From an uncultured Gammaproteobacteria bacterium (GTDB lineage Bacteria > Pseudomonadota > Gammaproteobacteria > UBA9214), in the NCBI GenBank assembly GCA_963701505.1, contig CAVOZZ010000009.1, forward strand, positions 65,770-129,769: DNA of 64,000 nucleotides, in the 5' to 3' direction. Below are positions 1 to 64,000 of the stretch, in pieces. The position numbers and the translations under genes are program-made. The notes beneath the pieces are model-generated. The model saw only the letters and a program-made list of their open reading frames with translations. It was not told where the DNA came from and searched no databases. Each line of letters opens with the position of its first letter. The stretch's first letter is position 1.

Positions 1-728
1 GCAAATACCAGTAGCGGCTTATTTATCTTCGGCAACAAATAGGGCGTATCCTTGCGCGGATCTGGAGCGTAATAGGAGACCATCGCCTGTGCACTGACAA
101 CCGCATCCGCACAGTAGATGAAGTCCGTGTGTTCCATCAGGGTTTCCGGGTGACCCGTAGCAACCAGGGATTGTGATTTTTTCAGCACTGGGGCCAGGGG
201 TTTACCATAGCTTTTCTCATAGCTGCTGGCTTCAGCTTCCGCATTCCAGGTCTGGGGAGCAATCAGGATCACCTTGCTGATAACCGGGTCATCCTGCTCG
301 GCCGCAAACCAGGCGGTCTGGTTGCCCCCGCGAGAATGCCCCAGCAAAACCACTTGTTCAACGCCCTGCGTTTTTAACCAGCCAAGCCAGGCACCGATCT
401 CGCCCAAGGCATCTTCATGCTGGTGGATATGGGGCGTGCTGCACTCGTAGGGGCCATGGCGGTCATTCAGGCCCAGGCCAAGATTGATCGCCAGTGAGCT
501 CACCCCGTTTTCCAGGAACAGTTGCTGCAAGACGCTGATGAGTTCGCTTTTGTTGTGTGAGAGGGTGCCGTGAGTAATCAGAACGGTCGGGCCTGCCGGC
601 CAGTCTTGCCGCTTTTCCAGGCTGGCATTCAGGGTCAGGTTCTCATAGTTCAGTTTCACCTCTTCTGCGTATACCCCGGGGGCAGACACAATGGAGACCA
701 GCACAAATATCGAAAAAATACGCAGCAT
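1..728 (-). CDS. secreted alpha/beta-fold hydrolase (start in window, 3' end runs off window edge)
   Basis: Absent from the supplied ORF track because it has no stop in the window. My reverse-strand translation from ATG (728-726) gives MLRIFSIFVLVSIVSAPGVYAEE (signal-peptide-like), then VVLLGHSRGGNQTAWFAA with a G-H-S-R-G nucleophile elbow. The frame is open to position 1. It makes the + strand ORF 570..980 spurious. Confidence 0.7.
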   Translation of the reverse strand, partial: MLRIFSIFVLVSIVSAPGVYAEEVKLNYENLTLNASLEKRQDWPAGPTVLITHGTLSHNKSELISVLQQLFLENGVSSLAINLGLGLNDRHGPYECSTPHIHQHEDALGEIGAWLGWLKTQGVEQVVLLGHSRGGNQTAWFAAEQDDPVISKVILIAPQTWNAEAEASSYEKSYGKPLAPVLKKSQSLVATGHPETLMEHTDFIYCADAVVSAQAMVSYYAPDPRKDTPYLLPKINKPLLVF

Positions 729-1021
729 CACGAGTACTCCTCCAGGTCAATAATCCAAGATTATCACGCTAGGAGACGACTGTTGATTTTCCTGTTTGAA
801 TCTTGCAATCATTTGCAGCTGACAGCCGTTCGAGACCGGGTACGTTTACTTCCTCAGTCCGACTGCCAGAAAACCACCACAGGGCAGTGCAGCCGGCAGC
901 CAGGGCTCGCTCCACTGCTCCACGCCGGTCCCTTGAGGAAGAAAAACGGCACTGCGCAACATAATCTTCCGGGTCACTAAAATGCGGCGCTTCTAAACTG
1001 TTCTCTGCTGTCCCCTGCAGA

Positions 1022-1987
1022 CTAGATCACCGGCAGGCCCGCCTCTATCCACTTTGTCATGCCACCACGCACCACGTGCACGTCGGCGAAACCCTCTTCC
1101 GTCAGCAACAACGCCGCCTTCGCGGAGCGCTTGTCGGTACGGCATACAATCGCAACCGGTTGTTCAAGGCGCTTACCTATCTCATCCATGCGCTGTTGCA
1201 GTTCTTCGACCGGGATATTCACGGCACCCTCGATATGTCCCTGTTCACCGACGAAGTCTTCAGCAGTGCGCACATCAAGCACCAGCAAATTCTTTTTGGT
1301 CTCGAGCAGCTGCTTGAACTCGGGTATGTCTATCATGGGGCCACGGCGCAGGTTGCCAATCAGGCGAGGCAGAAAGGCCACTACGGCCAGCAGTGCCAGT
1401 GCCAGCAGGCCTTTCTGGATCATGCCCTCGCCACCAGCGATTGCTTCGCGGCCCGCATAGCCCAGGTAGGTGTAGGCAATGGCACCTGGCAGCATGAACA
1501 CATAGGTCGCCAGGATGTAATGCAGTAACCGCAGGCGCGTCAGCCCAAGGGCATAGTTCAGCAAGTTGAACGGAAACAACGGCACCAGCCGCACGAAGGC
1601 AACAAAACGCCAGCCCTCACCCTCGACGCCATTGACCAATTGTTTCACACGCCCGCCTGTTTTATTCGCGACCCAGTCTGCGGCCAGGTAGCGTGCAATC
1701 AGGAAGGCCAGGGTGGCACCCAGCGTGGCGCCTGTCAGGTTATAGAAGGTCCCCAGTACCGGTCCGAACAAGGCACCGCCGGCCAGTGTAAGGACTGAAC
1801 CGGGAAGAAACAGCACGGCAGCCAGTGCGTAAATCAGCATGAACAGCAACGGGGCTACCGGCCCGGCATTCCGAACCCGGGACTCGAGTGCTGCCGCGTC
1901 GAACTGGTCACGGTAAATGATGGCCAGCGTGACTGCAGCAAACAGTCCCAGGAATAAAACGATTCGCATCAGACGCTTGCTATTCAT
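1022..1987 (-). CDS. TVP38/TMEM64 (DedA/SNARE-associated) membrane protein fused to a C-terminal rhodanese domain
   Basis: ORF 1022..1996. The likely ATG is at 1987 (MNSKRLMRIV). The N-terminal ~210 aa are multi-TM with LPGSVLTLAGGALFG and VRLVPLFPFNLLNYALG motifs. The C-terminal ~100 aa are rhodanese-like, with active-site loop CRTDKRS and GGMTKWIEAGLP. Confidence 0.75.
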   Translation of the reverse strand: MNSKRLMRIVLFLGLFAAVTLAIIYRDQFDAAALESRVRNAGPVAPLLFMLIYALAAVLFLPGSVLTLAGGALFGPVLGTFYNLTGATLGATLAFLIARYLAADWVANKTGGRVKQLVNGVEGEGWRFVAFVRLVPLFPFNLLNYALGLTRLRLLHYILATYVFMLPGAIAYTYLGYAGREAIAGGEGMIQKGLLALALLAVVAFLPRLIGNLRRGPMIDIPEFKQLLETKKNLLVLDVRTAEDFVGEQGHIEGAVNIPVEELQQRMDEIGKRLEQPVAIVCRTDKRSAKAALLLTEEGFADVHVVRGGMTKWIEAGLPVI

Positions 1988-2193
1988 GGCCACCACTACA
2001 CCGGCGCCGTGGGCTGATCATTTCCCATAGTGCCATGACACCGAACATGCCAGGGAAAAACCCGATCCGGATGGGCATTGCATTGCTCAAGATGAAGTTA
2101 TTGAGATTCACAGACAGTACCTCTCTGGAACAACGGATTGCCCCTTAGGGTCCACCGGCTGAAAATGCCTGTTGGCTGGATAAGGAGCTTGTC

Positions 2194-4275
2194 TCAGCGG
2201 CGTTCAAACACTACCACACTGCGGGGCTGCACCATGCAGGTGGGTGCTGACTGCAGCGGCTGATTCACAGGCCTGATGATATCCAGCGGGGACTCCCCGG
2301 CGGTATCGATGGCCAGGTGCCAGTCGCCCTCGGTAACCGGCGGCAAGGGCATGATCAGCTGCTTCGCCTGCATGTTCATAACCACGAACAGGTCTTCCTC
2401 CCAGGACTCAACCGCACCCAGCGTACAGGCCAGCACCCGCGCATCGTGATCCTCCCATGATGGCTGGTTGAAGCGTTCACCATGCCAGGTGATGTCCGGG
2501 AACCAGTGGCCTTCGCGCTCCAGTCCGTTCAGGAAGCGCGCATGCATGAGGCAGGCATGGCGCTTGCGAAAGGCAATCATCAGCCGCGTAAAGCGCAGCA
2601 TCTCGCTGTTTGTCTCCAGCAGCGTCCAGTCAAACCAGCCGAGTTCATTGTTCTGGCACCAGACATTGTTATTGCCATGCTGGGTTCGCAGCACCTCGTC
2701 ACCGGCATTGATCATGGGTATTCCCTGGCTGAGCAACAGGATCGCCATGAAGTTCTTCGCCTGCCTGCGCCGCAACCCGATGATATCGCCGTCATCGGTT
2801 TCGCCCTCAGTGCCGCAGTTCCAGCTGAGGACGTTGTTGTTGCCATCGCGGTTCTGCTCGCCGTTGCCCTCATTGTGTTTTTCGTTAAAGCTCACCAGGT
2901 CATGCAGGGTGAAGCCATCATGGCAGTTGATGAAATTGATGCTGTTGATCGGCAGCCGGTCATCATCCTGGTAGAGATCACTGCTGCCGCTGAAACGCCG
3001 CGCCAGTTCGCTGTGCATACCCTTGTCGCCGCGCACAAAGCGGCGCACCACATCCCGGTAACGCCCGTTCCACTCGGCCCAGCGAAAACCGGGGAAATCA
3101 CCGACCTGGTAAAGACCTGCCGCATCCCAGGCCTCGGCGATAATGCGCGTTTCACTGAGCACATTGGAAAACTCGATATTCCACAACACCGGCGCATGGT
3201 ACAGCGGCTCGACCATTCTCGCCGCGCGACAGCACGCTGGCCAGATCAAAACGGAAACCATCCACATGCATCTCGCGCACCCAGTACTCGAGACATTCCA
3301 GTATGAACTTCGCCACCAGCGGATGATTGCAGTTGAAGGTGTTGCCGCAACCGGTGTAATCACGGTAGATCGCGCGATCCTGCGGGATCCAGGTGGTAGA
3401 AGGTCTCGTTGCCGATGCCCTTGAAATTGATGACCGGGCCACCTGCCCCGCCTTCGGCCGTATGGTTAAAGACCACGTCGAGAATGACGCCGATGCCGGC
3501 CTCATGCAGCGCCTTCACCATGTCCCGGAACTCGTGGACATGGGCACCGGCATGTGGCGAGACACAATAACCGGGGTGCGGACTGAAATAACTGTGGGTG
3601 CTGTATCCCCAGTAATTGCGCAGACCCAGTTCCGCCACGCCCGGCGGGTACGTCCTGTTCATCAAAGGCCATGACAGGCAGCAGTTCGACATGGGTCACG
3701 CCCAGTTCCATCAGGTAGGGGATCTTCTCGATGACACCGAGGAAGGTCCCCGGCCGGCTGGCGCCGGCACTCGGATGCCGGGTAAAACCACCGACATGCA
3801 TTTCATAGATAATGGTTTTTTCCGGACGGATACAACCCAGTGGTTCATCATCCTCCCAGTCATACTCGCCGGACTGCACCACGCCACGCATGGAGGTGGC
3901 CATGTTGCTGCCGGGCGCCTCCGCCGCGGCGCGTTGCCACAGCGTGTCGGTCACGCCGCGCGCCCAGGGATCCAGCAGTACCTTCTCGCGGTCAAAACGA
4001 AATCCGGACTGATGCAGGTCATCCGGCCCGTCGATACGCCACGCATAGTGGGTACCCGCCGGCAGGTCCACCACCAGCACGCTCCAGAAAAAAAACATCC
4101 GCTGCAGCCGCGCTTCCAGGGGAATAATCTGAAAGGGCTCGACACTGTCCGCGGCAGCAAACAGCAGCAACTCGACATGCGTGGCATGCCGGCTGTAGAT
4201 GGAGAAATTGACACCGTCCGCAACCGCGGTGGCGCCCTCCGGGTAGCGGTTGCCGGGACGGATCTGGTAACTCAT
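2194..4275 (-). pseudogene. glgX: glycogen debranching enzyme GlgX (GH13), disrupted by 3 frame changes as sequenced
   Basis: Four colinear ORF fragments (3502-4299, 3360-3692, 3152-3505, 2194-3363). GH13 motifs present: [37 protein letters not shown]. Frame breaks lie near 3645, 3390 and 3212. The likely start is MSYQIRPG at 4275. Confidence 0.85.
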
Positions 4276-4658
4276 GGTGGCGTTGTCAGTCAATGGCATG
4301 GTTCCGCGGCTGTTTTATTCCGGTGCTGTCGCAGCAGCGCGGGTAGACAGGCACACCGTTATGGCTTGATCGGTGACAACCCCGACTACCCGCCGCTGGC
4401 TGTGGTGGTTCCCCGGTAACGGGGTTACGCTGCTGCTCGACTACGTCCAGCAGTTTATCAAAGGCCTCGATAAAAAGTCCCACACTCTCTGTGTGCAGCC
4501 TGTCCGCCCCATCACGGTGCCGCGTCACCCCCGATGAAGTTAATAAAAACGTAACATTCCCCCACTTTTACTTGAACAGGCAGCAGAGTAGACTTGCGCC
4601 GCAATGCTGTCACCCTCGATAAACCTGCCCCTGCAATTCCTCAACCTCTGGTTGACGC

Positions 4659-5118
4659 TTGCTGCTGATCTGGCTGATTGCCAACGGCACGCTGGCCACC
4701 GACACCGTGCTCACCGGCGTGGTGATCACCGCGGCCATCGCGCTGGCGTTCGCCGCCTATTCGCGCGTCTATAGCGTGATCCGCTGGTCGCCGCGGGTGA
4801 TCTACAATTACCTGCTTTACCTGGGCGTGTTTCTCCACGAACTGGTGAAGGCCAACCTTAACGTGATGCGGCTATGTGTTCAGCCGGCACATCGACATCC
4901 ACCCCGGCATCGTCGAGATCAAGACCCGCCTGGAGTCGCCCATCGGCCGCCTGGCACTGGCGAATTCCATCACGCTGACCCCGGGCACCCTGGTCGTGGA
5001 CATGCAGGGCGATTCGCTGTTCATCCACTGGATCAACGTCACCGCGACGGACCCGGTCGCGGCCACGCAGGCGATCGCCGGGCGCTTCGAGAAATACCTG
5101 AAGGTGATCTATGGCTGA
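4659..5118 (+). pseudogene. MrpE/MnhE-like antiporter subunit (MbxA-like), one frame change near 4866-4880
   Basis: ORF 4659..5129 (TTG start; N-terminal TM part ending HELVKANLNVMR) continues in ORF 4876..5118 (IDIHPGIVEIKTRLESPIGRLALANSITLTPGTLVVDM). This is typical MnhE. The stop overlaps the next start. Confidence 0.7.
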
Positions 5119-5371
5119 GATCGCCCTGAACATCGCTTTCGTGCTGATCTTCTTCAGCATCGTGTTCGGCATCATCCGTCTGGTCATCGGCCCCGACACG
5201 GTCGACCGGGTGGTCGCCGTCGACCTGCTGACCATCGTCGCCATCGCGGTGATCGCGCTGCTGGCACACATCGGCAACCGCTATATCTACCTCGATGTCG
5301 CCCTGGTCTACGGCCTGCTGAGTTTCCTCGGCGTGCTCGCGGTTGCCCGTTTCCTCGAAAAAGGCATCTAG
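5111..5371 (+). CDS. MrpF/MnhF-like subunit
   Basis: 86 aa, three TM segments. GPDTVDRVVAVDLL is the MnhF/PhaF signature region. The 8-nt start/stop overlap with the upstream gene suggests translational coupling. Confidence 0.8.
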   Translation: MAEIALNIAFVLIFFSIVFGIIRLVIGPDTVDRVVAVDLLTIVAIAVIALLAHIGNRYIYLDVALVYGLLSFLGVLAVARFLEKGI

Positions 5372-5393
5372 TCGCACAGGTAATTCACTGAAT

Positions 5394-5633
5394 ATGATCG
5401 TATTACTCACACTGCTGCTCTGTGGCGGCATCCTCATCAGCGGCCTGCTCGCCGTGCAGCTCGACAGCCTGGTCAGCGCGGTGATCAGCGCCGGCCTCGC
5501 CAGCCTGTTCGCTGCCGTGGTCTACGTGGTGCTGGCGGCGCCCGACGTTGCCATGACCGAGGCCTCGATCGGCTCGGGCCTGTCGACCATGATCTTTCTT
5601 TATGCCATCCGCAAGACGCGGGGCAAGGACTGA
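5394..5633 (+). CDS. small membrane subunit, MbhD/MrpB-N-terminal (DUF4040)-like
   Basis: ORF 5343..5633. The internal ATG at 5394 gives MIVLLTLLLCGGILISGL..., ~79 aa with 3 TM. The motif APDVAMTEASIGSGLSTMIF resembles the DUF4040 region of MnhB/MbhD. Confidence 0.6.
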   Translation: MIVLLTLLLCGGILISGLLAVQLDSLVSAVISAGLASLFAAVVYVVLAAPDVAMTEASIGSGLSTMIFLYAIRKTRGKD

Positions 5634-5636
5634 GCC

Positions 5637-5981
5637 ATGGGCGAGTTGATCGGCAGCCTGTTCCTGCTGGGTGGCTCGGTATTCCTGTTCTCGGCGGGTC
5701 TCGGCGTGCTGCGCATGCCGGACACCTATAACCGTATCCAGACCGGCACCAAGGCCACCACCCTGGGCACCATCCTGATCCTGATCGGTCTGGCCTTCCT
5801 GCACCCGGCCTGGACCTTCAAACTGATCATCCTGATCTTCTTCGTGATGCTTACCAACCCGGTGTCCTCGCACGCCCTGGCACGCGCCGCCCATGCCATC
5901 GGCACCGCAGAGACCGAGTCCACCGTGATCGACCAGCTGGAGGTCACCGCGAACGAAGACACCCGGGAGCAAGCGGAATGA
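5637..5981 (+). CDS. MrpG/MnhG-like subunit
   Basis: 114 aa. GVLRMPDTYNRIQTGTKATTLG is the classic MnhG/PhaG motif. Confidence 0.8.
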   Translation: MGELIGSLFLLGGSVFLFSAGLGVLRMPDTYNRIQTGTKATTLGTILILIGLAFLHPAWTFKLIILIFFVMLTNPVSSHALARAAHAIGTAETESTVIDQLEVTANEDTREQAE

Positions 5982-6015
5982 ACCGTGCAACGCCGCTGCC
6001 GGGTAGCGAGACCGT

Positions 6016-6756
6016 ATGATCAAGCGCATCGTCATCCTGCTGGTGCTGGTCATGCTGGCGATCATCTTTCTCGAGCTCGCGGCCAACTACAGCGAGAAAA
6101 CCTCGCTGTCACCACTGGGCCACTACTACGCCGAGCAGGGGCCATCGGAACTCGGCGCCGCCAACCTGGTGACTGCCGTGGTGGTCACCTACCGCGGCCT
6201 GGATACCCTGGGCGAGGTCACCGTGCTGTTCATCTCCGCTGCCGGTGTCGGCCTGCTGTTGCGCCGCACCCGGCGCACGGACGATGACGAAGATCTTGAA
6301 AAAGGCGACCGCGCCGAGGAAACCGCGGGCGCGCGCAAGCCCGCCAGTGAAATCGTCGAAACCGCCACCCAGCTGCTGCTACCGATGGTCATCCTGTTCG
6401 GCATCTACGTATTCCTGAACGGCCACCTGTCGCCCGGCGGCGGGTTCCAGGGCGGTGCCATCATCGCCTCCGGCACCATGTTCCTGTTGCTGGCCCTGCC
6501 CGAATCACACATCAGCCGCCTGATGATCGCCATGACCGAATCGCTCTCCGGCTTCAGCTACGTGGTCATCGGCGTGCTCGGCGTGCTGCTGGCAGGCGGT
6601 TTCCTCGACAACCGCATCATGGGCCTCGGCACCTACGGCAGTCTGTTCAGCGCCGGTGCCATACCGCTGATTTATGTGTTCGTCGGCATCAAGGTAGGCT
6701 TCGAACTCAGCGCGGTACTCGACCGCTTCCGCAAGGAGGACACGGGACCGTTATGA
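6016..6756 (+). CDS. MrpB/MnhB-like subunit (MbhE/F-like) with an acidic/basic linker
   Basis: 246 aa. Motifs NLVTAVVVTYRGLDTLGEVTVLF and GHLSPGGGFQGGAI are MnhB-domain signatures. The two halves are joined by a charged insert (RRTRRTDDDEDLEKGDRAEE). Confidence 0.75.
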   Translation: MIKRIVILLVLVMLAIIFLELAANYSEKTSLSPLGHYYAEQGPSELGAANLVTAVVVTYRGLDTLGEVTVLFISAAGVGLLLRRTRRTDDDEDLEKGDRAEETAGARKPASEIVETATQLLLPMVILFGIYVFLNGHLSPGGGFQGGAIIASGTMFLLLALPESHISRLMIAMTESLSGFSYVVIGVLGVLLAGGFLDNRIMGLGTYGSLFSAGAIPLIYVFVGIKVGFELSAVLDRFRKEDTGPL

Positions 6757-7133
6757 GTGTCCTCGCCGACATGCAGATTTCACTGATCGTGCTGTGCAGC
6801 GGCCTCGGCCTGGTCCTGATCGGGCTGTGGGGCATACTGACGCAACGCAATATCATTCGCATGATCATCGGCTTCTCGCTGCTGGATACCGGCATTCACA
6901 TGGTGATGGTATCCATCGGTTATGTCACCGGCGGCACCGCCCCCATCATCAACGACGCCGTGCCCATGGCCGAAGCCGTCAGCCGCGTCGTCGACCCGGT
7001 GCCGTCCGCGCTGGTGCTGACCGCCATCGTCATCGGCCTTGGCGTTACCGCCGTGATGCTGTCCTTCGCGGTACGCATGTACAGGGCACGCAGGACGCTG
7101 ATGATTGACGAGTTCACGGAGTCGAAATGGTAA
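6753..7133 (+). CDS. MrpC/MnhC (NuoK-like) subunit
   Basis: 126 aa, 3 TM. NIIRMIIGFSLLDTGIHMVMV is a NuoK/MnhC-type motif. Start and stop overlap both neighbours. Confidence 0.8.
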   Translation: MSVLADMQISLIVLCSGLGLVLIGLWGILTQRNIIRMIIGFSLLDTGIHMVMVSIGYVTGGTAPIINDAVPMAEAVSRVVDPVPSALVLTAIVIGLGVTAVMLSFAVRMYRARRTLMIDEFTESKW

Positions 7134-8440
7134 ACGCGCTGATGACAGAGGTACTGTTGCGGCCGCTGGGTATCTACGTGATCGCGCTCGGTGCGGGCTT
7201 CCTGATACCACTGTTTGACCGTGCACACCGCGGCTCGGCCATCCTGCTGTTCCTCGCGGCCCTCGCCGGCATGGTCGCCATTGCCGGCATCAACCTGCTG
7301 GCGATCCTGAACGGCGCAGCCGCCATCGAGATCGAAACCGCGGGCATTGCGCCGCCGTTTTCCATCAACCTGCGCTTCGGCCTGTATGAAGGCGGCTTTG
7401 TGCTTGCAGTCAACAGCATCGCGCTGCTGGGCGCCCTGCACTGGCTGCCGTCACTGCGGCAGCATGCCTCCGCGCTGTTGCTCTACCTCATCATGGTGAT
7501 GGGCATCAACGGCATGGTGATGACCCGCGACCTGTTCAACCTGTTCATTTTTATCGAGATTACCTCGATCGCCACCTACGCCCTGATCGGCATGGAGCGC
7601 AGCGGCGCGGTGCTCGCTGCCGGCTTCAAATACATCGTCGCGACCTCGGTGGCCTCGGCCTTCTTCCTGCTGGGCACGATCTTCCTGTATTACCTCACCG
7701 GTACGCTGAACATTGACGGCATGGTGGCACAGCGCGAGCTGATCAGTGGCCCGATCGGCTTCATCGCGACCCTGTTGCTGCTCACCAGCCTGCTGATCGA
7801 GCTCAAACCCTACCCCGCCAACGGCTGGGGACTGGACGTCTACGAGACGGCACCCGGCGGCATCGCCGCGCTGATCTCTGTCGGCGTCTCCGCCGGCGTG
7901 TTGTTCGCGTTGTTCAAGACACTGCCGCTGCTGGATGACTACCTGACGAGCATCGCCGTGGTCGGCGGCGCAACCTTCCTGGTCTCCAACCTGATCGGCC
8001 TGAAGCAGGACAACGCCAAACGCCTGCTCGGCTATTCCTCCATCGGCCAGATGGGCCTGCTGACACTGGCGCTGGCCGCGACGGCACAGCTTGGCAGCGA
8101 GTCACTGTTGCCGCTGATCGTGGGCGGCCTGTTCATCAATCATCTGCTGGCCAAGGCCGGGCTGTTCTGGCTGGCGGACGTGGTCAATCGCAAGACTACC
8201 CGGGACTGGTCGGTGCTCGCCGGGCGGCCCCTGCTGTTACTGGTGTTCGGTATCCTGCTGACCGCCCTGGTCGGTCTGCCACCTTTCCCCGGCTTCTGGG
8301 CCAAGTGGGTGCTGGTCATGGAACTCGCCACGGGTGGCCTGTACGGCTGGATTGCCGTGATCCTGCTGGGCTCGCTGCTGGAAGCCGCCTACCTGTTCCG
8401 CTGGTTTACGCAGGCGCTGGAGGCCCGGAAAACCGATGCC
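7127..8440 (+). CDS. MrpD/NuoM/N-type antiporter-like subunit 1 (MbxH-like); 3' end uncertain
   Basis: ORF 7127..8896. The first ~435 aa are a typical proton-conducting membrane transporter (FNLFIFIEITSIATYALI, LLGYSSIGQMG, PPFPGFWAKW). After ~8430 the reading becomes an Arg/Pro/Gly-rich tail that overlaps the next gene in another frame. The true stop has therefore been lost or shifted. Confidence 0.7.
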
Positions 8441-9818
8441 CCCGAGGCGCATCAGCCGCTGGAAACTGGCGCCCGTTGCCGTGGCCGCCCTGCTGCTGTT
8501 TGCCACCGGCTATGCCATGGCCATGCAACTCGAGAGCGACACCCTGGTCATGTTCCTGCCGCTGCTGGCCGGTGCCGCACTGTGGCTGCTGGACGGCCTG
8601 CCGGGCCGCCTGAAGAGCCTGCTGATGCTGGTGATAGTGGCCGCGGGCGGCGCCTGGCTGACGCTGGATCTCGAAGGCCTGAACCGTATCTTTGGCTTCA
8701 TCCTGGTCGGCGGCGGCGTGCTGGTGAGCCTCGCGACCCAGTACCGGGGCGATGCCCGCAAGGGCTTCTACCCGCTGCTGACCATCCTGCTGCTGTCGCT
8801 GGCGACACTGTTGTGCGCACACACCAGCCTGGCGTTCTTCTTCAGCTGGGAACTGATGACAGTGAGCTCCTACCTGCTGATCACCCTCGGCCGTAACGGC
8901 GTCAAGCCCTCACTGACCTACCTGCTGTTCTCGCTGGGTGCGGCCTATTGCATCCTTGCCGGTTTCGCCATCGCCTATGCGGCCACCGGCAGTCTTGAAC
9001 TGGCCGCACTCGGAGGCACGGGTGCGTCCACCGGCCTGGTATTCAGCCTGCTGGCGGCCGGCTTCCTCATCAAGACCGGCGCGCTCGGCGTGCATATCTG
9101 GGTGCCGGGCGCCTACGCGGAGGCCGACGACGACTTCAGCGCCTTGCTCTCCGCCGTGGTCAGCAAGGCCGCCATCTTTGGCCTGCTGCTGATTGCCGCA
9201 CAGCTCGGCGTGCGTTCCGACATCGGCCTCGACCCGGCCTACGTGCTCGGCTGGATCGGCATGCTTACCGCGACCTTCGGCGCGCTGATGGCCGTGTTCC
9301 AGGAAGACATCAAAAAACTGCTCGCCTACTCCAGCATGGGGCAGCTCGGCTATATCGTCACCGGCATCGCGCTGATGAGCCACCTCGGCTGGGTCTCCGC
9401 ACTGTACCTGACGGTGAACCACTTCCTCTTCAAGGGCATCCTGTTCCTCGCCGTCGCCGGCGTGGTACTGCGCACCAACCAGCGCTTCATGTACAAGATG
9501 GGTGGACTGATCAAGAACATGCCGTTCACCTTCGTCGCCACCATGATCGCCATCATCGCCATGTCCGGCGTGCCGCCGCTGACCGGTTTCGGCGGCAAGT
9601 GGCTGCTGTTCAACGCCATCATGGAAAAGGGCTGGTACTGGCTGGCCGCACTGGCGTTCTTCTCCAGCGCCGTCGCCTTCCTTTATATGTTCCGGCTGCT
9701 GCACACCGTCTTTCTCGGCCAGCGCAAGCTGGAGCATGCACAACTGCGCGAGGCGCCGGCGATCCTGCTGATTCCACAGTTCGTGCTGATCGGCATCATC
9801 ATGGTGTTTTCCGCCTAG
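8436..9818 (+). CDS. MrpD/NuoL-type antiporter-like subunit 2 (MbxH'-like)
   Basis: 460 aa. Motifs FFFSWELMTVSSYLLI, GVHIWVPGAYAEA, LLAYSSMGQLGYI and PPLTGFGGKW. It ends at TAG 9816-9818, which is in frame with the following ORF (see findings). Confidence 0.8.
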   Translation: MPPRRISRWKLAPVAVAALLLFATGYAMAMQLESDTLVMFLPLLAGAALWLLDGLPGRLKSLLMLVIVAAGGAWLTLDLEGLNRIFGFILVGGGVLVSLATQYRGDARKGFYPLLTILLLSLATLLCAHTSLAFFFSWELMTVSSYLLITLGRNGVKPSLTYLLFSLGAAYCILAGFAIAYAATGSLELAALGGTGASTGLVFSLLAAGFLIKTGALGVHIWVPGAYAEADDDFSALLSAVVSKAAIFGLLLIAAQLGVRSDIGLDPAYVLGWIGMLTATFGALMAVFQEDIKKLLAYSSMGQLGYIVTGIALMSHLGWVSALYLTVNHFLFKGILFLAVAGVVLRTNQRFMYKMGGLIKNMPFTFVATMIAIIAMSGVPPLTGFGGKWLLFNAIMEKGWYWLAALAFFSSAVAFLYMFRLLHTVFLGQRKLEHAQLREAPAILLIPQFVLIGIIMVFSA

Positions 9819-11209: not shown

Positions 11210-11246
11210 AAACGCGGCGCGACATGCCGAGCGTGAGGACCTGACC

Positions 11247-11879: not shown

Positions 11880-11914
11880 TCCCATGACACACGATCGAGC
11901 CCGGAAATACAATT

Positions 11915-13623: not shown

Positions 13624-13635
13624 GCAGTAAATATC

Positions 13636-15444: not shown

Positions 15445-15445
15445 C

Positions 15446-16075: not shown

Positions 16076-16158
16076 TCCGCAGGCTGGGCTTCGTACCTCA
16101 GCCCAACCTGCAAATGACTTTTTTCTGTATTTTCTAAATACACCCGGGGGGCAGACCA

Positions 16159-19837: not shown

Positions 19838-25141
<5,304 letters not shown>

Positions 25142-46524: not shown

Positions 46525-46583
46525 GATAAATACCTCTTTCTTGAATTACTTGTTATGTACCGGATTACGCTCTGATCAGTTCG

Positions 46584-54455: not shown

Positions 54456-54467
54456 TCCTGACGCGCG

Positions 54468-55646
54468 ATGGAGATCTACCTGGTCGGCGGGGCCGTACGG
54501 GACAAGCGACTCGGGCTGCCGGTGCGGGAACGCGACTGGGTGGTTGTCGGCGCGACACCGCGGAAGACCTGCTGGCACTGGGTTATCAACCGGTCGGCAA
54601 GGATTTCCCGGTGTTCCTGCACCCCGAGACCAAGGAGGAGTACGCGCTGGCGCGCACCGAGCGCAAGACAGGTCACGGGTATACCGGCTTTGAAACCCGT
54701 GCAGATCCCGGCATCACCCTCGAGGAAGACCTGTTGCGGCGTGACCTCACCATTAACGCCATGGCTGAAACACCCGAGGGCGTATTGATCGATCCCTTTC
54801 ACGGTCTGGAGGACCTGAATAACGGCGTGCTGCGGCATGTTTCAGCCGCCTTCGCGGAGGACCCGGTACGCATCCTGCGCACGGCACGTTTTGCTGCTCA
54901 CTTTGCGCAACGGGGTTTCCACGTCGCACACGCAACCAATGCCCTGATGCGCCGCATGGTGCAAAACGGCGAGGCCAGTCACCTGGTCGCGGAACGCGTC
55001 TGGGCAGAACTGGTAAAGGCGCTGGACACCCGGACACCGGCACGCTTCTTCAAGGTGCTGGCCGGCTGCGGCGCACTGGCTGTGCTGTTTCCCGAACTCG
55101 TGCCCGCGGCCAACAGCGCTGCAGTGCCGATGGACATGGGCACGCTATCGCGCTGCCGGTGCTGGAACAGGCCGTCACCCTCAGTCACCAGCACCACCGA
55201 TCCGCTTCGCCGCGCTGGCCTGTGACATGGACAACCTGCACCCCGAGGGTCAGGGCGAGGATGCGCTGGCATCGCTGTGTGAACGCTACCGGGTACCGAA
55301 TGCCTGTCGCGATCTCGCACGGCACGCAGTCCAGCAACGTCGCCAGCTGCAGGCAGCAACCGGCCTGTCACCGGAGATCATTGCTGGGGCTGTTGAACAG
55401 CGTCGATGCCTTCCGCCGGGCAGAGCGTTTCGGCGAACTGCTGCAGGTGTGCGCGGCCGATGCCGCCGCCAGTCATCGCGACGTTCAGCAGCGACTACCT
55501 GCTACAGGCACTGGCCGTCGCGCAGTCTGTGAACACCGCCGGGTTGCAAGCTGCACGGATTATCCGGCAGGAAATCGGCAGAGGCCTTGCAGCAAAGCCG
55601 CATCGAGGCCATCGACGCCTCAATCGCACAACGCATGCCTCAATAA
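54468..55646 (+). pseudogene. cca: tRNA nucleotidyltransferase (CCA-adding enzyme), multiple frame changes
   Basis: [31 protein letters not shown]; [21 protein letters not shown]; [10 protein letters not shown]; [13 protein letters not shown]. The C-terminal HD region is scattered over three frames. Confidence 0.8.
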
Positions 55647-56441
55647 AACAGCAGCAGCAGAATAGACGCCCAGCAACAGCCGGTATACCACGAACGGCAG
55701 CATCCCGACGCGCTCGATCAGGCGCATAAAACAGCTCTATACAGAGATAGGCACTGACGGCGGCGACCGTCGTACCCAGCAGGAGTCTCGCTCCACGCGA
55801 CCGGTCCTGGCTGCTGCAGCAGTTTCAGCGACTCGTACCCCCCGGCCATCAGGATCACCGGAATGGACAGCAGGAACGAAAAGCGTGCCGACGCCGAACG
55901 CGTCAGACCCAGTGCCAGCGCCGCGGTCATGGTGATACCGGAACGCGAGGTACCGGGTATCAGGGCCAGTGCCTGGGCCATGCCGATCCAGATGACATCG
56001 GTCACCGTCAGGCTGTTCTCACTGCGGGATTGCCTGCCGTACCGGTCTGCCAAGCCCAGCAATACCCCGAACCCAATCGTCGTCAGGGCAATGACCAGCG
56101 GTGATCGCAGGTAGGTCTCGACCAAGTCGTGCAGGAACAGGCCGGCTCACAGCGACCGGTATGGTAGCCAGCAGCAGCAGCCACGCGAGGCGTGCATCGG
56201 CATCCATGCGGCGATTCAGGCAGGACGCTGACCAGGCGACAGACAGGCGCTGCAGCTCATCCCGGAAGTAGAACATGACCGCCAGCAGGGTTCCGACATG
56301 CACGGCGACATCAAAGGCCAGACCCTGATCGCCCCAGCCGAGCAGGCGCGGCAACAGGATCAGGTGTGCGGAACTCGATATCGGCAAGAATTCAGTCAGG
56401 CCCTGCAACAGCGCCAGTAGCAGGATGTGCAATGTGTCCAT
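55640..56441 (-). pseudogene. uppP: undecaprenyl-diphosphate phosphatase (BacA/UppP), multiple frame changes
   Basis: [27 protein letters not shown]; IPGTSRSGITMTAALALG. The C-terminus (VVYRLLLG) is recovered in another frame. Confidence 0.8.
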
Positions 56442-56454
56442 AGGAAACGTGTTA

Positions 56455-57585
56455 TCAAAGCCGGTTGCGGTAATCCTGCAGGCGGAAACCGGGAACAGCC
56501 GTTGTCAGGCCGCGCGTCAGGCCGATGCACTTGAAGCGCTCGCCCATTTCACCCGGCAGTATCAGTGTTTTCGCCTGCTGTGCAAGCTGTAAATAGTGTA
56601 TGGAATCCGTCGGACCGGCCTGCTTGCAACAAATTATCCAGACCACTGTCGAGCAGGAAAACAGGCCTGCGTAGTATAGCCGCTGACTTCAAGGTCCGAG
56701 GCAAGTGCCGCTTCGGCAACCGCCGTAAAATCCACATGTGCAGTGATGTCCTGCAGCCCAGGCCACAGGAACGGATCGTCATGCGCACGCTGCCGGTAAT
56801 GGCACATCAAGGTGCCGCTGCTGTGTTGCGGATGATAATACTCATGGCGCGGATAGCCGTAATCGATCAGCAGCAGCATGCCCTGCTCAAGCCGATGCAG
56901 CCACGCTCTGCAACCAGGCAGGTAACGCGACATTGAGCTCCGAAATATAACCGGGCTGTCAGCTGGCAGCTCGCAGGCCAGCGACTCAACAGCAGCGGTC
57001 GTCTCATCCTGTTGCTGCCTGCAGGCGCCACTGGAAAGCATCGCCCTCACAGCCCACGTGGAACAGGCTGGCGGTCTTGCCGTCCCACTGAAAGCGTTCA
57101 ACGGCCATCGCGTCCAGCACCTCGTTGGCCAGCATGACGCCACGAAAACCGGCGTCCGGCAAGTGATCAATCCAGGACACCCTGTCCAGCAAGTGCGGCA
57201 ACTGCTGCTGCAGCGCCTGTTGTTGTCGCTGCCTGAGCTCGGCACTGCGCTCCAGTATCAGGTAGCGCCGCGGCAGGCAGGCACTGCGTTGCAGTTCGTC
57301 GAGCAGGTCAATGGCCAGCTGGCCACTGCCTGCACCAAATTCCAGGATATCGCCACCACTGCCAGACTCCAGTACCGCGCGACAGCTGTGTGCCAGACAA
57401 CGTCCGAACAACGGTGAAATTTCCGGTGCCGTGACAAAGTCCCCACCGGCACCGAACTTTCGCTGACCGGCACTGTAGTAGCCAAGGCCCGGTGCATACA
57501 GACACAGCTCCATGTAGCGGGCAAACGGGATGGAGCCACCTGCCGCCCTGATTTCGCCGCGGATGACAGCTCGACAGTTCGGCAC
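56455..57585 (-). pseudogene. SAM-dependent methyltransferase, MidA/NDUFAF7 (DUF185) family, 2-3 frame changes
   Basis: IPFARYMELCLYAPGLGYYS, DFVTAPEISPLFG, ILEFGAGSGQLA, LLIDYGYP, DITAHVDF. Confidence 0.7.
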
Positions 57586-57590
57586 TCAGC

Positions 57591-58138
57591 TCAAGCGCCT
57601 GCTGTGATGGAACGGGGTACTCGATCGCCTATTCCCCGTGCGAGTCTGCTACGGGCGGCCAGTCGACCGCTGTCCAGCGGCTGGCTCTCGTCATCGAAGC
57701 CTGCCCACATGTCCGCATAACTGACACCCGTTACCGGATGCCGCGCACGCGCCGGCAATCTCTGCCAGCGGTCGCAGCACAAAGGCGTAACGACTGATGT
57801 CCTCGCGCGGCAATACCAGTTTGCCCTGCTTCATGACCAGGTCATCATACAGCAGCAGATCCAGGTCCAGGGTGCGCGCCGAAAGTGTTGCTGTACGCTG
57901 CCGGCCACAACGATTCTCGATGGCATGCAGCTGGTCCTGGATGGACTGCGGTGATTCCTGTGTCGAGAAACCCAGCACCAGGTTATAAAACGGTGCACTG
58001 TCAAACCCGACGGCCGCGCTTTCATACACCGGCGACAGCTGCAGTTCACCATAGAGCTCCGTCAGTGCCTGCAATGCAGCTGGCGATATTCCGCTGCCGG
58101 TCAATATTGCTGCCGACACTGACATACACCTGCGGCAT
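57591..58138 (-). pseudogene. folK: 2-amino-4-hydroxy-6-hydroxymethyldihydropteridine diphosphokinase (HPPK), about 2 frame changes; 3' end uncertain
   Basis: ATG at 58138 (MPQVYVSVGSNIDRQRNI). Then LSPVYESAAVGF, RTLDLDLLLYDD, RYAFVLRPLAEIA. Confidence 0.75.
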
Positions 58139-58501
58139 GCAACTCCGACCCCGGTCACCGCGCTCTATAATGACGCCGACATCACGAGAACCGCGCACGG
58201 CACCCGGCTTGTGCACCGTGAGCTTCACCCACGGTACACTGAATTCTGTCAGCACAATCGCGGCAATCTTTTCCGCCAGCGTTTCTACCAGCTGGAATTC
58301 ACTGGCCTCGACGAAGGCAATCAGGCGCTTGGCAACGGCCTTGTAGTTGAGCGTATCTTCAATGGCATCCGTCTCTGCAGCGCGGCGGATGTCGGTACCC
58401 ATTTCCAGGTCAAGACTGATGGTCTGCCGGACCTTGCGCTCCCAGTCGTAAATGCCAATGATGGTTTCAATCCGCAAGTCATTAATAAAAACTGTATCCA
58501 T
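58139..58501 (-). CDS. folB: dihydroneopterin aldolase; no stop codon before the folK ATG as sequenced
   Basis: ATG at 58501 (MDTVFINDLRIETIIGIYDWERKVRQ...VGVIIERG). It reads in frame directly into the folK start. Confidence 0.8.
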
Positions 58502-58624
58502 AGTGTCACATGCCCTGTTGATGTGCTCATCAATATAGAGCCTCGCCGCCTGCTTGACCAGTGGCGACAAGCAGCCGCGCAGGTTGTCCTTGACGTCCAG
58601 TCTGTTAACGATTCCAATGGCGCC

Positions 58625-59297
58625 ATGACACAAAATCATTCTGCTGATCGCGGGTGGTTATCTGTTCGGTTCGATATCCACGGCCATTATTGTTTGCAAA
58701 CTGATGGGGCTGCCGGACCCGCGCACCGACGGTTCACGCAACCCGGGGGCCACCAATGTCGCGCGGCTCGGCGGAAAAAAGGCAGCAGCGCTGACGCTCG
58801 CGGGAGACATGCTGAAAGGGCTGGTCCCGGTGCTGATTGCGAAGGCCCTGCACGCCGACCCGACCATTCTTGCTGCGACCGCACTGGCGGCTTTCCTCGG
58901 TCACCTTTACCCGGTCTTTTTCGGCTTCCAGGGTGGCAAGGGCGTGGCAACGGCACTGGGCGTGATTTATGGCCTCTACTGGCCGGTGGGGTTGCTGACC
59001 ACGGGCATCTGGCTCGCCATGGCCCTCGTGTTCCGCTATTCCTCGCTGGCAGCACTCACGGCCATCCTGCTGACACCGCTGTGTTTCATGTGGTTGCTGC
59101 CGGAAACGCCGATTGTGATCGCCATGGTGGTACTGACCGTGCTGCTCTACTGGCGGCACCGCAGCAACATTGCCAACCTGCTGAGCGGCAAGGAAGGCAA
59201 GATCAGTTTCGGCAAGCGGACAAGGCGTAGCCGCGGACAGCGTCCACGAATAGATCAAGCGCTGAACAGACGGACCCAGCGCATCGGTTGCACCTGA
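58625..59297 (+). pseudogene. plsY: glycerol-3-phosphate acyltransferase PlsY, one frame change in the A-run at about 58633
   Basis: ATG at 58625 (MTQ). Removing one A from caaaat restores IILLIAGGYLFGSISTAIIVCKLMGLPDPRTDGSRNPGATNV, then FGFQGGKGVAT. Confidence 0.85.
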
Positions 59298-59318
59298 ATC
59301 GCGCCGGGGGCGGCGCTC

Positions 59319-60333
59319 CTACACGGCCGGCAATTCTTCCAGCGACCAGCGCGGCATGGCCTTGATACTCAGGCTCTCGTGCTGCCCTGCCTGCAGGCGC
59401 TGGTAGCCGGCATAGGCAATCATGGCGCCATTATCGGTACAGAATTCGGGACGCGGATAACACACACGTCCACCCTCGGCAGTCCATCAACTCGCCGAGA
59501 CGTTCACGCAGGCGCTGATTGGCACCCACGCCACCGGCAATCACCAGCGTCTTCAGACCGGTCTGGGCAACCGCGCGGCGGCACTTGATGACCATGGTAT
59601 CGACGACGGCCTCCTCGAAGGCACGTGCGATATCGGCACGGTCCTGCTCGCTCTGCCCTGATTCACGCCAGGTATTCAGTGCAAAGGTCTTCAGACCACT
59701 GAAGCTGAAATCCAGACCGGGCCGGTCGGTCATGGGCGCGGAAAGCGGAAACGCCCGGCATCACCCTGCAGCGCCAGCGCCGCCAGCGCGGGTCCACCGG
59801 GATAGGACAGTCCCAGCAGGGTCGCGGTTTTGTCAAAGGCCTCACCGACCGCATCATCGACAGAATCGCCCAGCACCCGGTAGCGCCGATGCCCTCGACC
59901 TCCACCAGCAGGGTATGCCCGCCCGAAACCAGTAACGCCAGGAACGGAAAATCCGGCGGGTCGGGCTCCAGCATCGGCGCCAGCAGGTGTCCCTCCATGT
60001 GATGGACAGCGACTGCCGGCACCCCCCAGGTCCAGGCCAGGCTGCGCCCGGTGGTCGCGCCCACCAGCAGGGCACCCACCAGACCGGGACCAGCGGTATA
60101 CGCCACCCCGCTGATATCTTTTCTTTGTAATTCCTGATATTATCAATTACTTGCCTGACAAGCGGCAGCAGCTTGCGGACATGGTCACGGGACGCCAGCT
60201 CCGGCACCACACCGCCGTAACGCGCATGCAGATCGATCTGGCTGTACAGGGCATGGCCCAGCAGGCCGCGGTCAGCGGCGTACAGGGCCACCGCGGTTTC
60301 ATCACAGGAGGTTTCGATACCGAGCACGATCAT
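59319..60333 (-). pseudogene. tsaD: tRNA N6-adenosine threonylcarbamoyltransferase TsaD, at least 5 frame changes
   Basis: [18 protein letters not shown]; [15 protein letters not shown]; [10 protein letters not shown]; VSGGHTLL; [11 protein letters not shown]; [10 protein letters not shown]. The C-terminus is CTDNGAMIA...EELPAV-stop. Confidence 0.85.
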
Positions 60334-61272: not shown

Positions 61273-63047
61273 ATGGCTGGCCGGATACCGCAATCGTTTA
61301 TCGACGAATTACTCAACCGCACGGATATTGTTGAGGTCATCGATGCGCGCGTCCCCTTGAAGAAGGCCGGCCGTGAATACAAGGCGTGCTGCCCGTTCCA
61401 CGGTGAAAAAACCCCCTCGTTTACCGTCAGCCAGGTAAAGCAGTTCTATCACTGTTTTGGCTGCGGCGAACACGGCACGGCCATCACCTTCCTGATGGAT
61501 TACGAACACATGGAGTTCGTTGAGGCCATTGAGGAACTGGCGCGACGCGCCGGACTCGAGGTGCCGCGTGAGGCCGGCATCGAGCCACATACTCCCTCAA
61601 CACTGCCGCACTATGCACTGCTGGAGCGTATCTCCGAGTATTACCAGGCACAGCTGCGCGAACACCCGCAGGCCGGCCGCGCGGTTGCTTACCTGAAAAA
61701 CAGGGGACTGAGCGGTGAGGTTGCCGCGCGTTTCCATATCGGCTTTGCCCCACCGGGCTGGGAAAACCTGGCCGCTGCACTTGGCGCAGACAACAAGGAC
61801 CAGCAGCTGTTGCTGGAGCTTGGACTGACCATCAAGCGTGATGATGGCAACGGCGCCTACGATCGCTTCCGTGACCGGATACAGTTTCCCATCCACGACC
61901 GGCGCGGACGCACCATCGGCTTTGGCGGCCGCGTACTGGATGACAGCACACCCAAGTACCTCAATAGCCCCGAGTCACCGGTGTTTCACAAGGGCAAGGA
62001 ACTGTACGGGCTGTTTGAAGCACGCAAGGCCGTTCGACATCTCGAGCGTATCCTGGTGGTGGAAGGCTACATGGACGTAGTGGCACTGGCGCAGTTCGAT
62101 ATCAACTACACGCGTGGCGACACTGGGCACAGCCACGACACACGAGCACCTCGAGCAGATTGTTTCGCACCGTGCCGGAAGTCGTCTTCTGTTTTGATGG
62201 CGACCGCGCCGGTCGCGAGGCTGCCTGGCGCGCGCTGGTAAACACCCTGCCGGTATTGCGTGACGGGCGTGAAGCACGCTTCCTGTTTCTTGCCGGACGG
62301 CGAGGACCCCGATTCGCTGGTAAGAAAGATTGGCAAGGATGCCTTTGAAGAACAGTATCGAAACAGCCACGCACCTGTCCGACTTTTTCTTCGAGCGTCT
62401 TGCCAGTCAACTGGATATCAACAGCATTGATGGACGTGCACGCCTGGTGACACTGGCAAAACCGCTGTTGACCAGCCTGCCTGACAGCGTCTTCAGGCAA
62501 CTGATGGTCGAGCGGCTGGCTGAACTGGCCCATACCTCAACAGCCCGTGTCGCCGGCCCTGCGGATGACGTGCCAGGCGGACCAGACCCCAGGCCGTCCG
62601 TCAAGCCACCCGCGGCACAGCATCCCGGACAAAAGAGCCCGGTACGACAGGCGATTGAATTGCTGCTCTACCAGCCGTCACTGGCCACGGACATCACACT
62701 CCCCGCGACCATCGGGCAGTGCAGCCAGCCGGGAGTGCCTTTACTGATTGAAATCATTGAATTACTTCAACAAGCAACCGGAACTTAATACTGCTGCGCT
62801 ACTCGAACACTGGCGTGACGATGAGGACGGCCGATATCTTGAACAGGCTGGCGTGCTGGACACCTCCTCTGGACGACCTGGAGCTGGCGGCCGACCTGCA
62901 GGGCAATCTCAACGAGATAGAACGCCAACACATTGAAAACAGGATAAATTATCTTGATTCAGAGCATAAACAGCGCGCCCTCAGCAGTGCAGAAAAGCAG
63001 GAATATGGCAACTGCTGCTGCAAAGCCACGCCGCACGTCAACACTGA
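61273..63047 (+). pseudogene. dnaG: DNA primase, at least 4 frame changes
   Basis: Zinc-ribbon motif CCPFHGEKTPSFTVSQVKQFYHCFGCGEHG, the RNA-polymerase core, and Toprim EGYMDVVALAQ...FCFDGDRAGREAA. The C-terminal helicase-binding region lies in shifted frames. The stop is inferred at about 63045-63047. Confidence 0.85.
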
Positions 63048-63183
63048 TGGTCAATTGCGACAACTATCAGACACCGTCTTGTTTACTAATTGGCTCAGCC
63101 CAATATACTGGTTTATACTGGTGCGATTAATTTCGCACCCCTTATGTGTACTTTTTGGGCCATCGATTTGCCCGCGGATGATT

Positions 63184-64000
63184 ATGGACAAGAAACAACA
63201 ATCACGACTGAAACTGCTGATCGAAAAAGGCAAGGAACAGGGTTTCCTGACCTATGCCGAAGTCAACGACCATCTGCCGGAAGATATCGTCGATCCACAG
63301 CAAATCGAAGACATCATTGGCATGATCAATGATATGGGCATCCTGGTGCACGAAGTGGCACCGGACAGTGATTCCCTGTTGCTTGCCAGCACCAAGAATT
63401 CCGCTGATGAAGATGCGGCGGAAGAAGCCGCTGCCAACCTGGTGACCGTTGACAGTGAATTCGGCCGTACCACCGATCCGGTTCGCATGTACATGCGCGA
63501 AATGGGTACCGTTGAACTGCTCACGCGTGAAGGTGAAATCGTTATCGCCAAGCGCATCGAGGATGGACTCAACCAGGTGCTGCTGGCACTGGCATCCTAC
63601 CCGGAAACAGCGGCTACCCTGTTACGGGGATATGAACGGGTCGATGCCGGTGAAATGCGTCTGAACGACCTGATTTCCGGCTTTATTGACCCCAATGCCG
63701 AAGAACCCCAGATACCGGAACCTGCACAGGTACAGGCAACAAACAGCAGCAAGGATGATGACGACGATCCGGATGACGAAAGTGATGAACCGGTTGATAC
63801 CGGTCCAGACCCGGAAGAGGCAAAGCAGCGCTTTGCGGAAATCGAGAAGGTTTACACTCAGCTGGTTACGGCTCATAGCGAAGGGCGGTAAAAATAGCTG
63901 CCCGTATAGAGAAACTTCGCACCCAGCTCTCGGAACAGATCGGTACCCTCAAGCTGGTTCCACGCATTATTGACATTCTGACCACCAACCTGCGCCACGC
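63184..64000 (+). pseudogene. rpoD: RNA polymerase sigma factor RpoD (sigma70), 3' end outside window; frame change in the A-run near 63890
   Basis: MDKKQQSRLKLLIEKGKEQGFLTYAEVNDHLPEDIVDPQQIEDII; DPVRMYMREMGTVELLTREGEI; an acidic spacer. After gtaaaaatag the frame shifts (KIAARIEKLRTQLSEQ...). Confidence 0.9.

Follow-up and report, generated by a model that had tools for sequence, protein, structure and literature searches.

Nearly all of the ~100 frame breaks that interrupt genes in the 64,000-nucleotide stretch of DNA analyzed here (hereafter the window) are, with high probability, consensus-calling errors of the deposited assembly. We show that the indels occur in this assembly alone, do not behave like mutations, and are spread genome-wide; selection on the affected genes is unrelaxed, nonsense changes are missing from the compared codons, insertions predominate, and other assemblies with few contigs are broken alike, all of which bears out the proposal of an initial annotation that most of the breaks are assembly indel errors. 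The breaks are blind to gene function (rpoD, dnaG, tsaD, cca, plsY, uppP and folK are all affected), and the apparent loss of essential genes would be an artefact of data quality rather than biology, because the breaks are almost certainly stray consensus-calling bases. Under this explanation, mostly single spurious extra bases, and fewer missing bases, would have been left at random positions in a few-contig (long-read style) metagenome assembly built from data too scant or noisy and polished incompletely, and the organism's actual genes would be intact.

Frame breaks in the window

The window was aligned to its closest relative, a genome of the same genus (G010) with 87-92% nucleotide identity that is syntenic over positions 2194-64000, and the frame breaks are present in the deposited sequence itself. 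Among the 232 alignment gaps there are 114 single-base insertions (+1) and 53 single-base deletions (-1) in the window. A reading frame was accepted where a G010 ORF showed pN/pS < 0.5, and an indel was considered uncompensated if no balancing indel lay within 45 nt. By these definitions 108 indels of a length not divisible by three (non-3n) fall inside accepted ORFs, 85 of them uncompensated; with a GltD-like gene, a Methyltransf_28 gene and the start of rpoD added, and two intergenic events removed, the final tally is 93 uncompensated non-3n indels in validated frames, or ~100 once small ORFs dropped by the filter are counted (events 4869, 5377, 44004, 60430 and 60682). The initial annotation had recognized the breaks correctly, and its count of roughly sixty was too low. 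About 33 of the ~50 genes are broken, with rpoD, dnaG, tsaD, cca, plsY, uppP and folK carrying 2-12 breaks apiece. Gene identities, given below in window coordinates, were confirmed on the intact G010 orthologues.

2194..4389, minus: glgX (glycogen debranching enzyme); +1 at 3212, 3386, 3644; at the 5' end +2 at 4315 and +1 at 4387
4659..15891, plus: Mrp/Nuo-like (Mbx-type) membrane complex cluster; nearly error-free, only +1 at 4869, 5377, 8449 and an in-frame TAG at 9816-9818
16159..18582, plus: ppsA (PEP synthase); intact, 807 aa
18597..19809, minus: dihydroorotate-dehydrogenase-like gene; +1 at 18904, 18957, 18973
19842..23444, minus: PFOR (nifJ type); 8 internal single-base indels at 20387, 21287, 21568, 22203, 22208, 22360, 22558, 22633
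23521..25141, minus: GltD-like NAD(P)H flavoprotein; +1 at 24043
25878..28484, plus: alpha-glucan phosphorylase; +1 at 26954, 27671, 27819
28627..30087, plus: pyruvate kinase; net +1 at 28947/28950, +1 at 29637, 30079
30230..31939, minus: KefC/KefB-type K+ efflux gene; 10 non-3n events (4 isolated and 3 compensated pairs)
32217..35660, plus: LolA-like gene and two LolC/E-like permease genes; +1 at 32487, 35172, 35477; +4 at 33911
36375..37665, plus: 430-aa gene, no family assigned; 6 uncompensated events
37852..40190, minus: cbbO (NorD-like VWA protein); one break only, +1 at 38735
40222..43310, minus: cbbQ, a 103-aa ORF, cbbS and cbbL (form I RuBisCO); all intact
43485..44406, minus: Cys-rich gene; +1 at 44004, giving two overlapping ORFs
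44541..47033, minus: aprA, +1 at 45612; aprB, -1 at 46572 and +1 at 46623
47118..48335, minus: sat (sulfate adenylyltransferase); intact
48649..49441, minus: TauE/SafE-like exporter; +1 at 48803
50068..51432, minus: succinate-semialdehyde dehydrogenase; intact
51498..53447, plus: Slt-type murein transglycosylase; +1 at 52014, -1 at 53423
53482..54461, plus: NAD-dependent epimerase-like gene; +1 at 53661, 54450; one compensated cluster
54468..55646, plus: cca (CCA-adding enzyme); 12 non-3n events, 8 uncompensated
55640..56441, minus: uppP; +1 at 55663, 55728, 55785, 56140
56455..57505, minus: Methyltransf_28 family gene; six +1 at 56622, 56662, 56897, 56957, 56975, 57018
57629..58142, minus: folK; 5 events
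58625..59230, plus: plsY; +1 (A) at 58638, -1 at 59221
59319..60333, minus: tsaD; 5 events at 59482, 59734, 59885, 60119, 60137
61273..63047, plus: dnaG; 7 events at 62112, 62155, 62286, 62356, 62772, 62837, 63012
63088..64000, plus: rpoD, 5' part; +1 at 63124, 63877, 63899

The glgX orthologue in G010 is a single 721-aa ORF, and relatives of cbbO, which number in the thousands, are 779-780 aa long. Earlier estimates for individual genes agree with the alignment: PFOR does lie in 7 pieces, glgX and the glucan phosphorylase (glgP) each have the 3 internal events ascribed to them, and the lower bounds given for tsaD (5), dnaG (4), cca (5) and the KefB-like gene (7) compare with 5, 7 and 8 uncompensated events and, for the last, 10 non-3n events.

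Comparison with relatives and the rest of the genome

Comparison with related genomes, which had been recommended as a check, placed the breaks in this assembly alone, the orthologous ORFs being uninterrupted in G010. Over the same validated genes, isolated non-3n indels relative to G010 number 75 in the window, but 0 in G003 and 1 in G013 when these short-read relatives are compared with G010, so that neither divergence nor chance would yield so many. At 65 of the 90 indel sites covered by a third genome, that genome sides with G010, and in three-way alignments at PFOR, pyk, cca, tsaD and dnaG the lone extra base is visible in the window.

Across nine contigs of the source genome (G000; 12 contigs, 83% marker completeness), 281 kb aligned to G010 contain 289 isolated 1-2-nt indels, or ~1.0 per kb, and on the eight contigs other than that of the window there are 165 insertions vs 50 deletions. 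Breakage goes with the type of assembly rather than with phylogeny: internal splits of ppsA occur in three of the four other genomes of the genus with 50 or fewer contigs and in none of the 14 many-contig genomes (Fisher P = 0.005), and PFOR is fragmented into at least 8 pieces in G008 and into 2 in G017. In the protein collection the best match had 91% identity, and no second assembly of this strain was among the entries.

These observations resemble the gene fragmentation by indels that is known from long-read (nanopore or PacBio CLR) assemblies, and is recognized from length ratios of the IDEEL type and from correction that takes frameshifts into account (PMC6785717, PMC8103633, PMC12007338), in the many assembly-private +/-1 indels, the function-blind truncation of proteins, the intact orthologues in short-read assemblies, the few long contigs, the depressed marker completeness, and the denser breakage of some stretches. 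Correcting frameshifts raised the completeness of nanopore metagenome-assembled genomes from ~85% to 94-95%, with the clearest gain where coverage was low (PMC8103633).

Uneven distribution of the breaks

Two blocks depart from uniform placement of the 93 events beyond chance:

8450..18903, no strand: cold block; 10,455 nt without a frame-disrupting coding indel
54400..59400, no strand: hot block; 28 indels that disrupt a frame within 5 kb

The gap between 8449 and 18904 has P < 5e-5, as has the hot block at 54.4-59.4 kb, for which the median expectation is 14 events. Three clean blocks had been singled out from the sequence (10283-18582, 40222-43310 and 50068-51432); none of them contains a coding indel, but only the gap that includes the first is exceptional, since the 3.2-kb gap around the third and the stretch around the second, which is no longer than 3.2 kb, are within Poisson expectation. 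Error density showed no clear relation to GC or, in the 281-kb sample, to distance from contig ends. The errors would be patchy because their density follows local data quality, leaving one 10-kb stretch clean and another of 5 kb with ~5-6 errors per kb; the type of sequencing, and a shallow or irregular read coverage as the source of the patchiness, are inferred. The clean blocks may, as the initial annotation proposed, reflect higher coverage or another data source.

A minority of genuine lesions may hide among the errors, the candidates being the TAG at 9816-9818 and, close to gene ends, some events of -1/-2 or 4 nt, although we consider this doubtful. The TAG (for TAT) is the lone in-frame stop, it lies outside the codons compared below, and the clean 10-kb stretch around it shows no other detectable error; it could be a real lesion, but a lone substitution error in 64 kb would be plausible as well. 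Indels at the ends of genes (4315, 4387, 6012, 19847, 41370 and 43373) may represent true start or stop differences, and compensated indel pairs are seen between good assemblies too, with 16 and 13 clusters in G003 and G013, respectively, relative to G010. No individual frameshift, however, is marked out as real.

Sequence context of the indels

There are 58 insertions of an extra base vs 15 deletions (P = 4e-7). The homopolymer-prone error mechanism put forward in the initial annotation is refuted for the window: tested against expectation, breaks are not enriched in runs of 3 nt or longer, which hold 5 of the 58 extra bases vs 17% expected, and most of the inserted (42/58, 72%, vs 54% expected for random insertion; P = 0.006) and deleted bases (13/15) are singletons. 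In plsY and rpoD, two of the examples named, the break is displaced from the run. In plsY the extra A comes after ATC, downstream of the A-run of caaaat and not inside it, and in rpoD the A5 run of gtaaaaatag, at 63890, is as long as in G010, with an extra T past TAGC, so that both extra bases are 3-5 nt off the A-runs. Extra bases are spread uniformly over the three codon junctions (21/20/17; P = 0.8), and no sequence motif was found around the 58 insertions examined. The errors are random single-base insertions, not homopolymer slips.

Programmed ribosomal frameshifting, known from prfB and dnaX, likewise has a gene read in two frames, but it occurs at single sites that are conserved among relatives and on slippery motifs, whereas the shifts in the window are missing in relatives, reach 12 per gene and lack a motif; recoding was therefore rejected.

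The spectrum also bears on a collapsed mixture of co-occurring strains, in which the consensus would have kept both alleles of a polymorphic site side by side, giving one-base insertions unlike the adjacent base, and hot blocks would mark high microdiversity. The singleton share fits the ~75% expected for the alternative allele of a neighboring base (P = 0.65) and misfits that of random insertion, and the transition partner is adjacent in 21 of the 42 singletons, yet that half is close to chance (about 44%). Moreover, polymorphisms in genes this constrained are mostly at third codon positions, so that ~15% of the insertions would be expected at the 1|2 codon junction, which holds 20 of the 58 (34%; P = 3e-4), while the insertions use all three junctions equally, which makes this artefact very unlikely.

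The error signature counts against ordinary consensus error: a non-homopolymer, insertion-biased one is unusual for polished long-read assemblies. Homopolymers accounted for more than 70% of the indels left in PacBio assemblies, and GC-rich genomes had G/C deletions there; errors that persist in consensus from well-covered PacBio or nanopore data are usually linked to homopolymers and are often deletions (PMC8574707), unlike those of the window, which are not concentrated in homopolymers and are ~4:1 insertions.

Selection and mutation spectrum

Substitutions specific to the window branch gave N/S values of 0.16 in unbroken genes, 0.18 where a gene has 1-2 breaks and 0.17 where it has at least 3, compared with 0.15-0.20 on the G010 branch, and pairwise pN/pS in broken genes was 0.06-0.25. 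If the indels were real and substitutions arose about 10 times as often, ~40 nonsense changes would be expected; the 11,031 codons compared contain not one nonsense substitution specific to the window, vs 93 frameshifts, and there were no large deletions within genes in the alignment to G010.

Very recent, real mass pseudogenization in a host-restricted or relaxed lineage, with the intact blocks representing genes still under selection, is highly improbable on this evidence. The intact genes do include a consistent set for autotrophy and energy metabolism (RuBisCO, cbbQ, sat, ppsA and the Mrp/Nuo-like complex), and the genome is smallish, at 2.55 Mb vs 2.8-3.7 Mb in several relatives. However, aprA, aprB, cbbO and PFOR are broken despite functional links to intact neighbors, and the cold block is one contiguous stretch rather than a functional class. 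N/S in heavily broken genes, as in intact ones, indicates no relaxation, and the 4:1 insertion bias with no association to runs is the opposite of what spontaneous indels in bacteria show, namely a bias towards deletions and a clustering in runs. In Mycobacterium leprae, Sodalis glossinidius and other bacteria that became host-restricted recently, the pseudogene-rich genomes mix nonsense changes, deletions, IS insertions and frameshifts under relaxed selection, and spare truly essential genes. The window shares with them a large fraction of interrupted genes beside blocks of intact ones, but it has only small indels, and essential genes, including rpoD, dnaG, tsaD, cca and plsY, are not spared, some having up to 7-12 breaks each.

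That the extra bases are truly in the population's DNA, through an unusual insertion-biased, homopolymer-independent mutational burst too recent for substitutions to have followed, or with a novel correction at the RNA or translational level, is scarcely credible; if true, such correction would let a gene carrying many +1 insertions keep its function and remain subject to purifying selection.

Implications

Consensus-calling error thus remains our explanation for nearly all of the breaks, and the warning that pseudogene calls in this stretch cannot be trusted was well founded, as the breaks behave like assembly errors and not like mutations. Error and decay can be told apart without reads, by whether the indels are private, by N/S on the branch concerned, by the ratio of nonsense changes to frameshifts, and by the direction and context of indels. 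The source organism is an uncultured sulfur-oxidiser, and the value of the result is practical rather than biological. Its assembly serves as the species representative, and with ~1 spurious indel per kb, or ~2,500 genome-wide as extrapolated from the 281-kb sample, gene calls, pseudogene counts, the 83% completeness estimate and metabolic reconstruction are distorted. Claims of gene loss or decay for this genome, and likewise for its few-contig relatives G008, G017 and G018, should first be checked against relatives or reads.

Results

Gene content of the window

The window (G000:C9:65770-129769; GC 55-66%) belongs to a genome of 2.55 Mb in 12 contigs, with a marker completeness of 83%, and its genes are those of a sulfur-oxidising autotroph, comprising the following features:

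form I RuBisCO with cbbQ and cbbO
sat and aprAB
ppsA
a Mrp/Nuo-like membrane complex
PFOR, flanked by a GltD-like gene and a DHOD-like gene
glgX, a glucan phosphorylase and pyk
a housekeeping stretch with slt, cca, uppP, folK, plsY, tsaD, dnaG and rpoD

Two repeat families are also present. An intergenic repeat of ~85 nt, which looks REP- or MITE-like, occurs on both strands (15959-16043, 18634-18725, 33039-33110, 37695-37774), with two copies flanking ppsA in inverted orientation and dozens of copies in the relatives G003, G013 and G010. A repeat of ~430 nt (49535-49962) has five more copies elsewhere in the genome (contigs C4, C5, C8 twice, and C12; 88-95% identity) and many in relatives. 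Between pyk and kefC, G010 carries a 257-aa ORF (L010:13531-14562) that the source genome lacks, the interval in the window (30088-30230) being only 142 nt.

Frame disruptions relative to the closest relative

Breaks were counted against G010, a genome of the same genus (160 contigs, 87-92% DNA identity) that is syntenic with the window over 2194-64000 and in which the corresponding ORFs are long and unbroken (glgX 721 aa, PFOR 1,279 aa, phosphorylase 868 aa, KefC 584 aa, dnaG 590 aa, rpoD 642 aa). BLASTN alignment gave 232 gaps, including 114 insertions of +1 and 53 deletions of -1 in the window; 108 indels of a length not divisible by three fell within G010 ORFs with a validated frame (pN/pS < 0.5), and 85 of these were uncompensated within 45 nt, alongside 11 compensated clusters. 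After addition of the GltD-like gene, a Methyltransf_28 gene and the 5' part of rpoD, which had been lost to the composition filter or coverage rule, and removal of two intergenic events, the adjusted total was 93 frame-disrupting indels, or ~100 with five further events in small ORFs (4869, 5377, 44004, 60430, 60682). The disruptions are thus real in the deposited sequence, and the roughly sixty frame changes proposed in the initial annotation were of the right order but an undercount; its per-gene break figures agreed with the indels found against the G010 ORFs.

The breaks are private to this assembly. With the same genes and procedure, 75 isolated events were found in 47.2 kb of the window vs G010, compared with none in 27.8 kb for G003 and one in 18.8 kb for G013, both many-contig relatives. 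In 65 of the 90 cases for which a third genome is available at the site, it shares the G010 state, and multi-genome alignment of seven sampled sites, at least one relative being present at four of these, showed a single lone extra base in the window. Errors in G010 itself were ruled out because G010, G003 and G013 mutually agree and their ORFs are intact.

Compensated gap clusters, by comparison, numbered 11 in the window and 16 and 13 in the two control comparisons; since such pairs are present in all three, they mostly represent ordinary divergence or alignment effects, and since they are equally frequent between short-read relatives, a pair alone is no evidence of error. In the window they lie 10-36 nt apart (55550/55569, 31264/31296, 31575/31610 and eight other clusters), and a few, e.g. 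55550/55569, are private to it against two relatives.

Mutation or assembly error

Four independent properties, namely selection, spectrum, direction and context, and placement, indicate that the breaks are errors rather than mutations. When substitutions were polarised by a third genome and changes unique to the window branch were scored (461 substitutions), N/S was 0.16 for unbroken genes, 0.18 for those with one or two breaks and 0.17 for those with at least three, next to 0.15-0.20 on the G010 branch; genes with up to 12 frameshifts are fully constrained on the same branch that carries the frameshifts. Substitution rates are usually about ten-fold above indel rates, so that ~40 stops would be expected if the 93 indels were real, and no window-specific nonsense substitution was found in the 11,031 codons compared. 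The sole nonsense difference seen is an in-frame TAG (9816-9818; TAT, Tyr, in G010) in a fused MrpD/NuoM-like gene (7112-10286, + strand), inside an otherwise error-free 10-kb block, and it may be either a true lesion or truncation, or a lone substitution error. True bacterial indels are deletion-biased and clustered in runs, whereas insertions here outnumbered deletions 58:15 (P = 4e-7), 42 of the 58 extra bases were singletons unlike both neighbours, and 13 of the 15 missing bases are singletons in G010. The extra bases are spread evenly over codon junctions (21/20/17; P = 0.8) with no sequence motif common to their surroundings, and essential genes were struck as readily as others.

As to how the extra bases arose, one candidate is the collapse of strain polymorphisms, with both alleles kept at SNPs; this would fit the share of singletons, but it is contradicted by the even use of codon junctions (P = 3e-4), and we reject it. 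A homopolymer-prone mechanism, suggested in the initial annotation, is ruled out: only 5 of 58 insertions fall within runs of at least 3, vs 17% expected, singletons exceed random expectation (72% vs 54%; P = 0.006), and the sites it had placed in runs lie elsewhere, the extra A of plsY after ATC, 3 nt beyond the A-run, the extra T of rpoD after TAGC, with its A5 the same as in G010, and the KefC events outside the C-runs. In well-covered PacBio assemblies, by contrast, >70% of residual errors are in homopolymers (PMC8574707). The signature in the window looks like unfiltered random insertion noise, from which we infer thin or poorly polished data, whatever the platform.

Uneven distribution of the breaks

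Under uniform placement of the 93 events (20,000 simulations; median largest gap 3.2 kb), none of the simulations reached the 10,455 nt without an event observed at 8449-18904, nor the 28 events in 5 kb at 54.4-59.4 kb (median maximum 14); with bins of 2 kb, the dispersion index was 3.1. All three stretches initially described as clean have no coding indels, although only the 8449-18904 gap is exceptional and the other two are within chance (second-largest gap 3,211 nt; P = 0.13). Density had no clear link with GC, identity to G010, clean-block duplication or distance to the contig end. Blocks of a few kb would match the depth fluctuation expected at the scale of read length.

Extent across the genome and the genus

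When a further 270 kb of G010 was aligned to the whole source genome and pooled with the window's own region, 289 isolated indels of 1-2 nt were found in 281 kb on nine contigs (~1.0 per kb), with insertions and deletions at 165:50 on the eight contigs besides the window's own. This alignment replaced two reference-free measures, a genome-wide overlapping-ORF signature of low sensitivity (27 of ~93 events detected) and long-ORF coverage, which does not discriminate in this GC-rich genome. A protein collection searched with the cbbO fragment held thousands of 779-780-aa relatives, none above 91% identity.

Discussion

Private indels, unrelaxed selection, the lack of nonsense changes, the insertion bias and the genome-wide effect together support the original suspicion that most of the frame breaks are assembly errors, which they almost certainly are, and they represent no biological novelty. 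The same syndrome has been published for long-read MAGs (PMC8103633, PMC6785717, PMC12007338), where frameshift correction raised completeness from ~85% to 94-95%, most clearly at low coverage (PMC8103633). Among the other assemblies of the genus, three of the four with few contigs (G008, G017 and G018) have an internal split in ppsA, compared with none of the 14 with many contigs (P = 0.005), and PFOR lies in at least eight pieces in G008 and two in G017, some of the fragmented genes in these genomes having internal stops. As the splits are confined to few-contig assemblies, fragmentation tracks assembly style, not descent, and the gene calls of G008, G017 and G018 probably call for the same caution.
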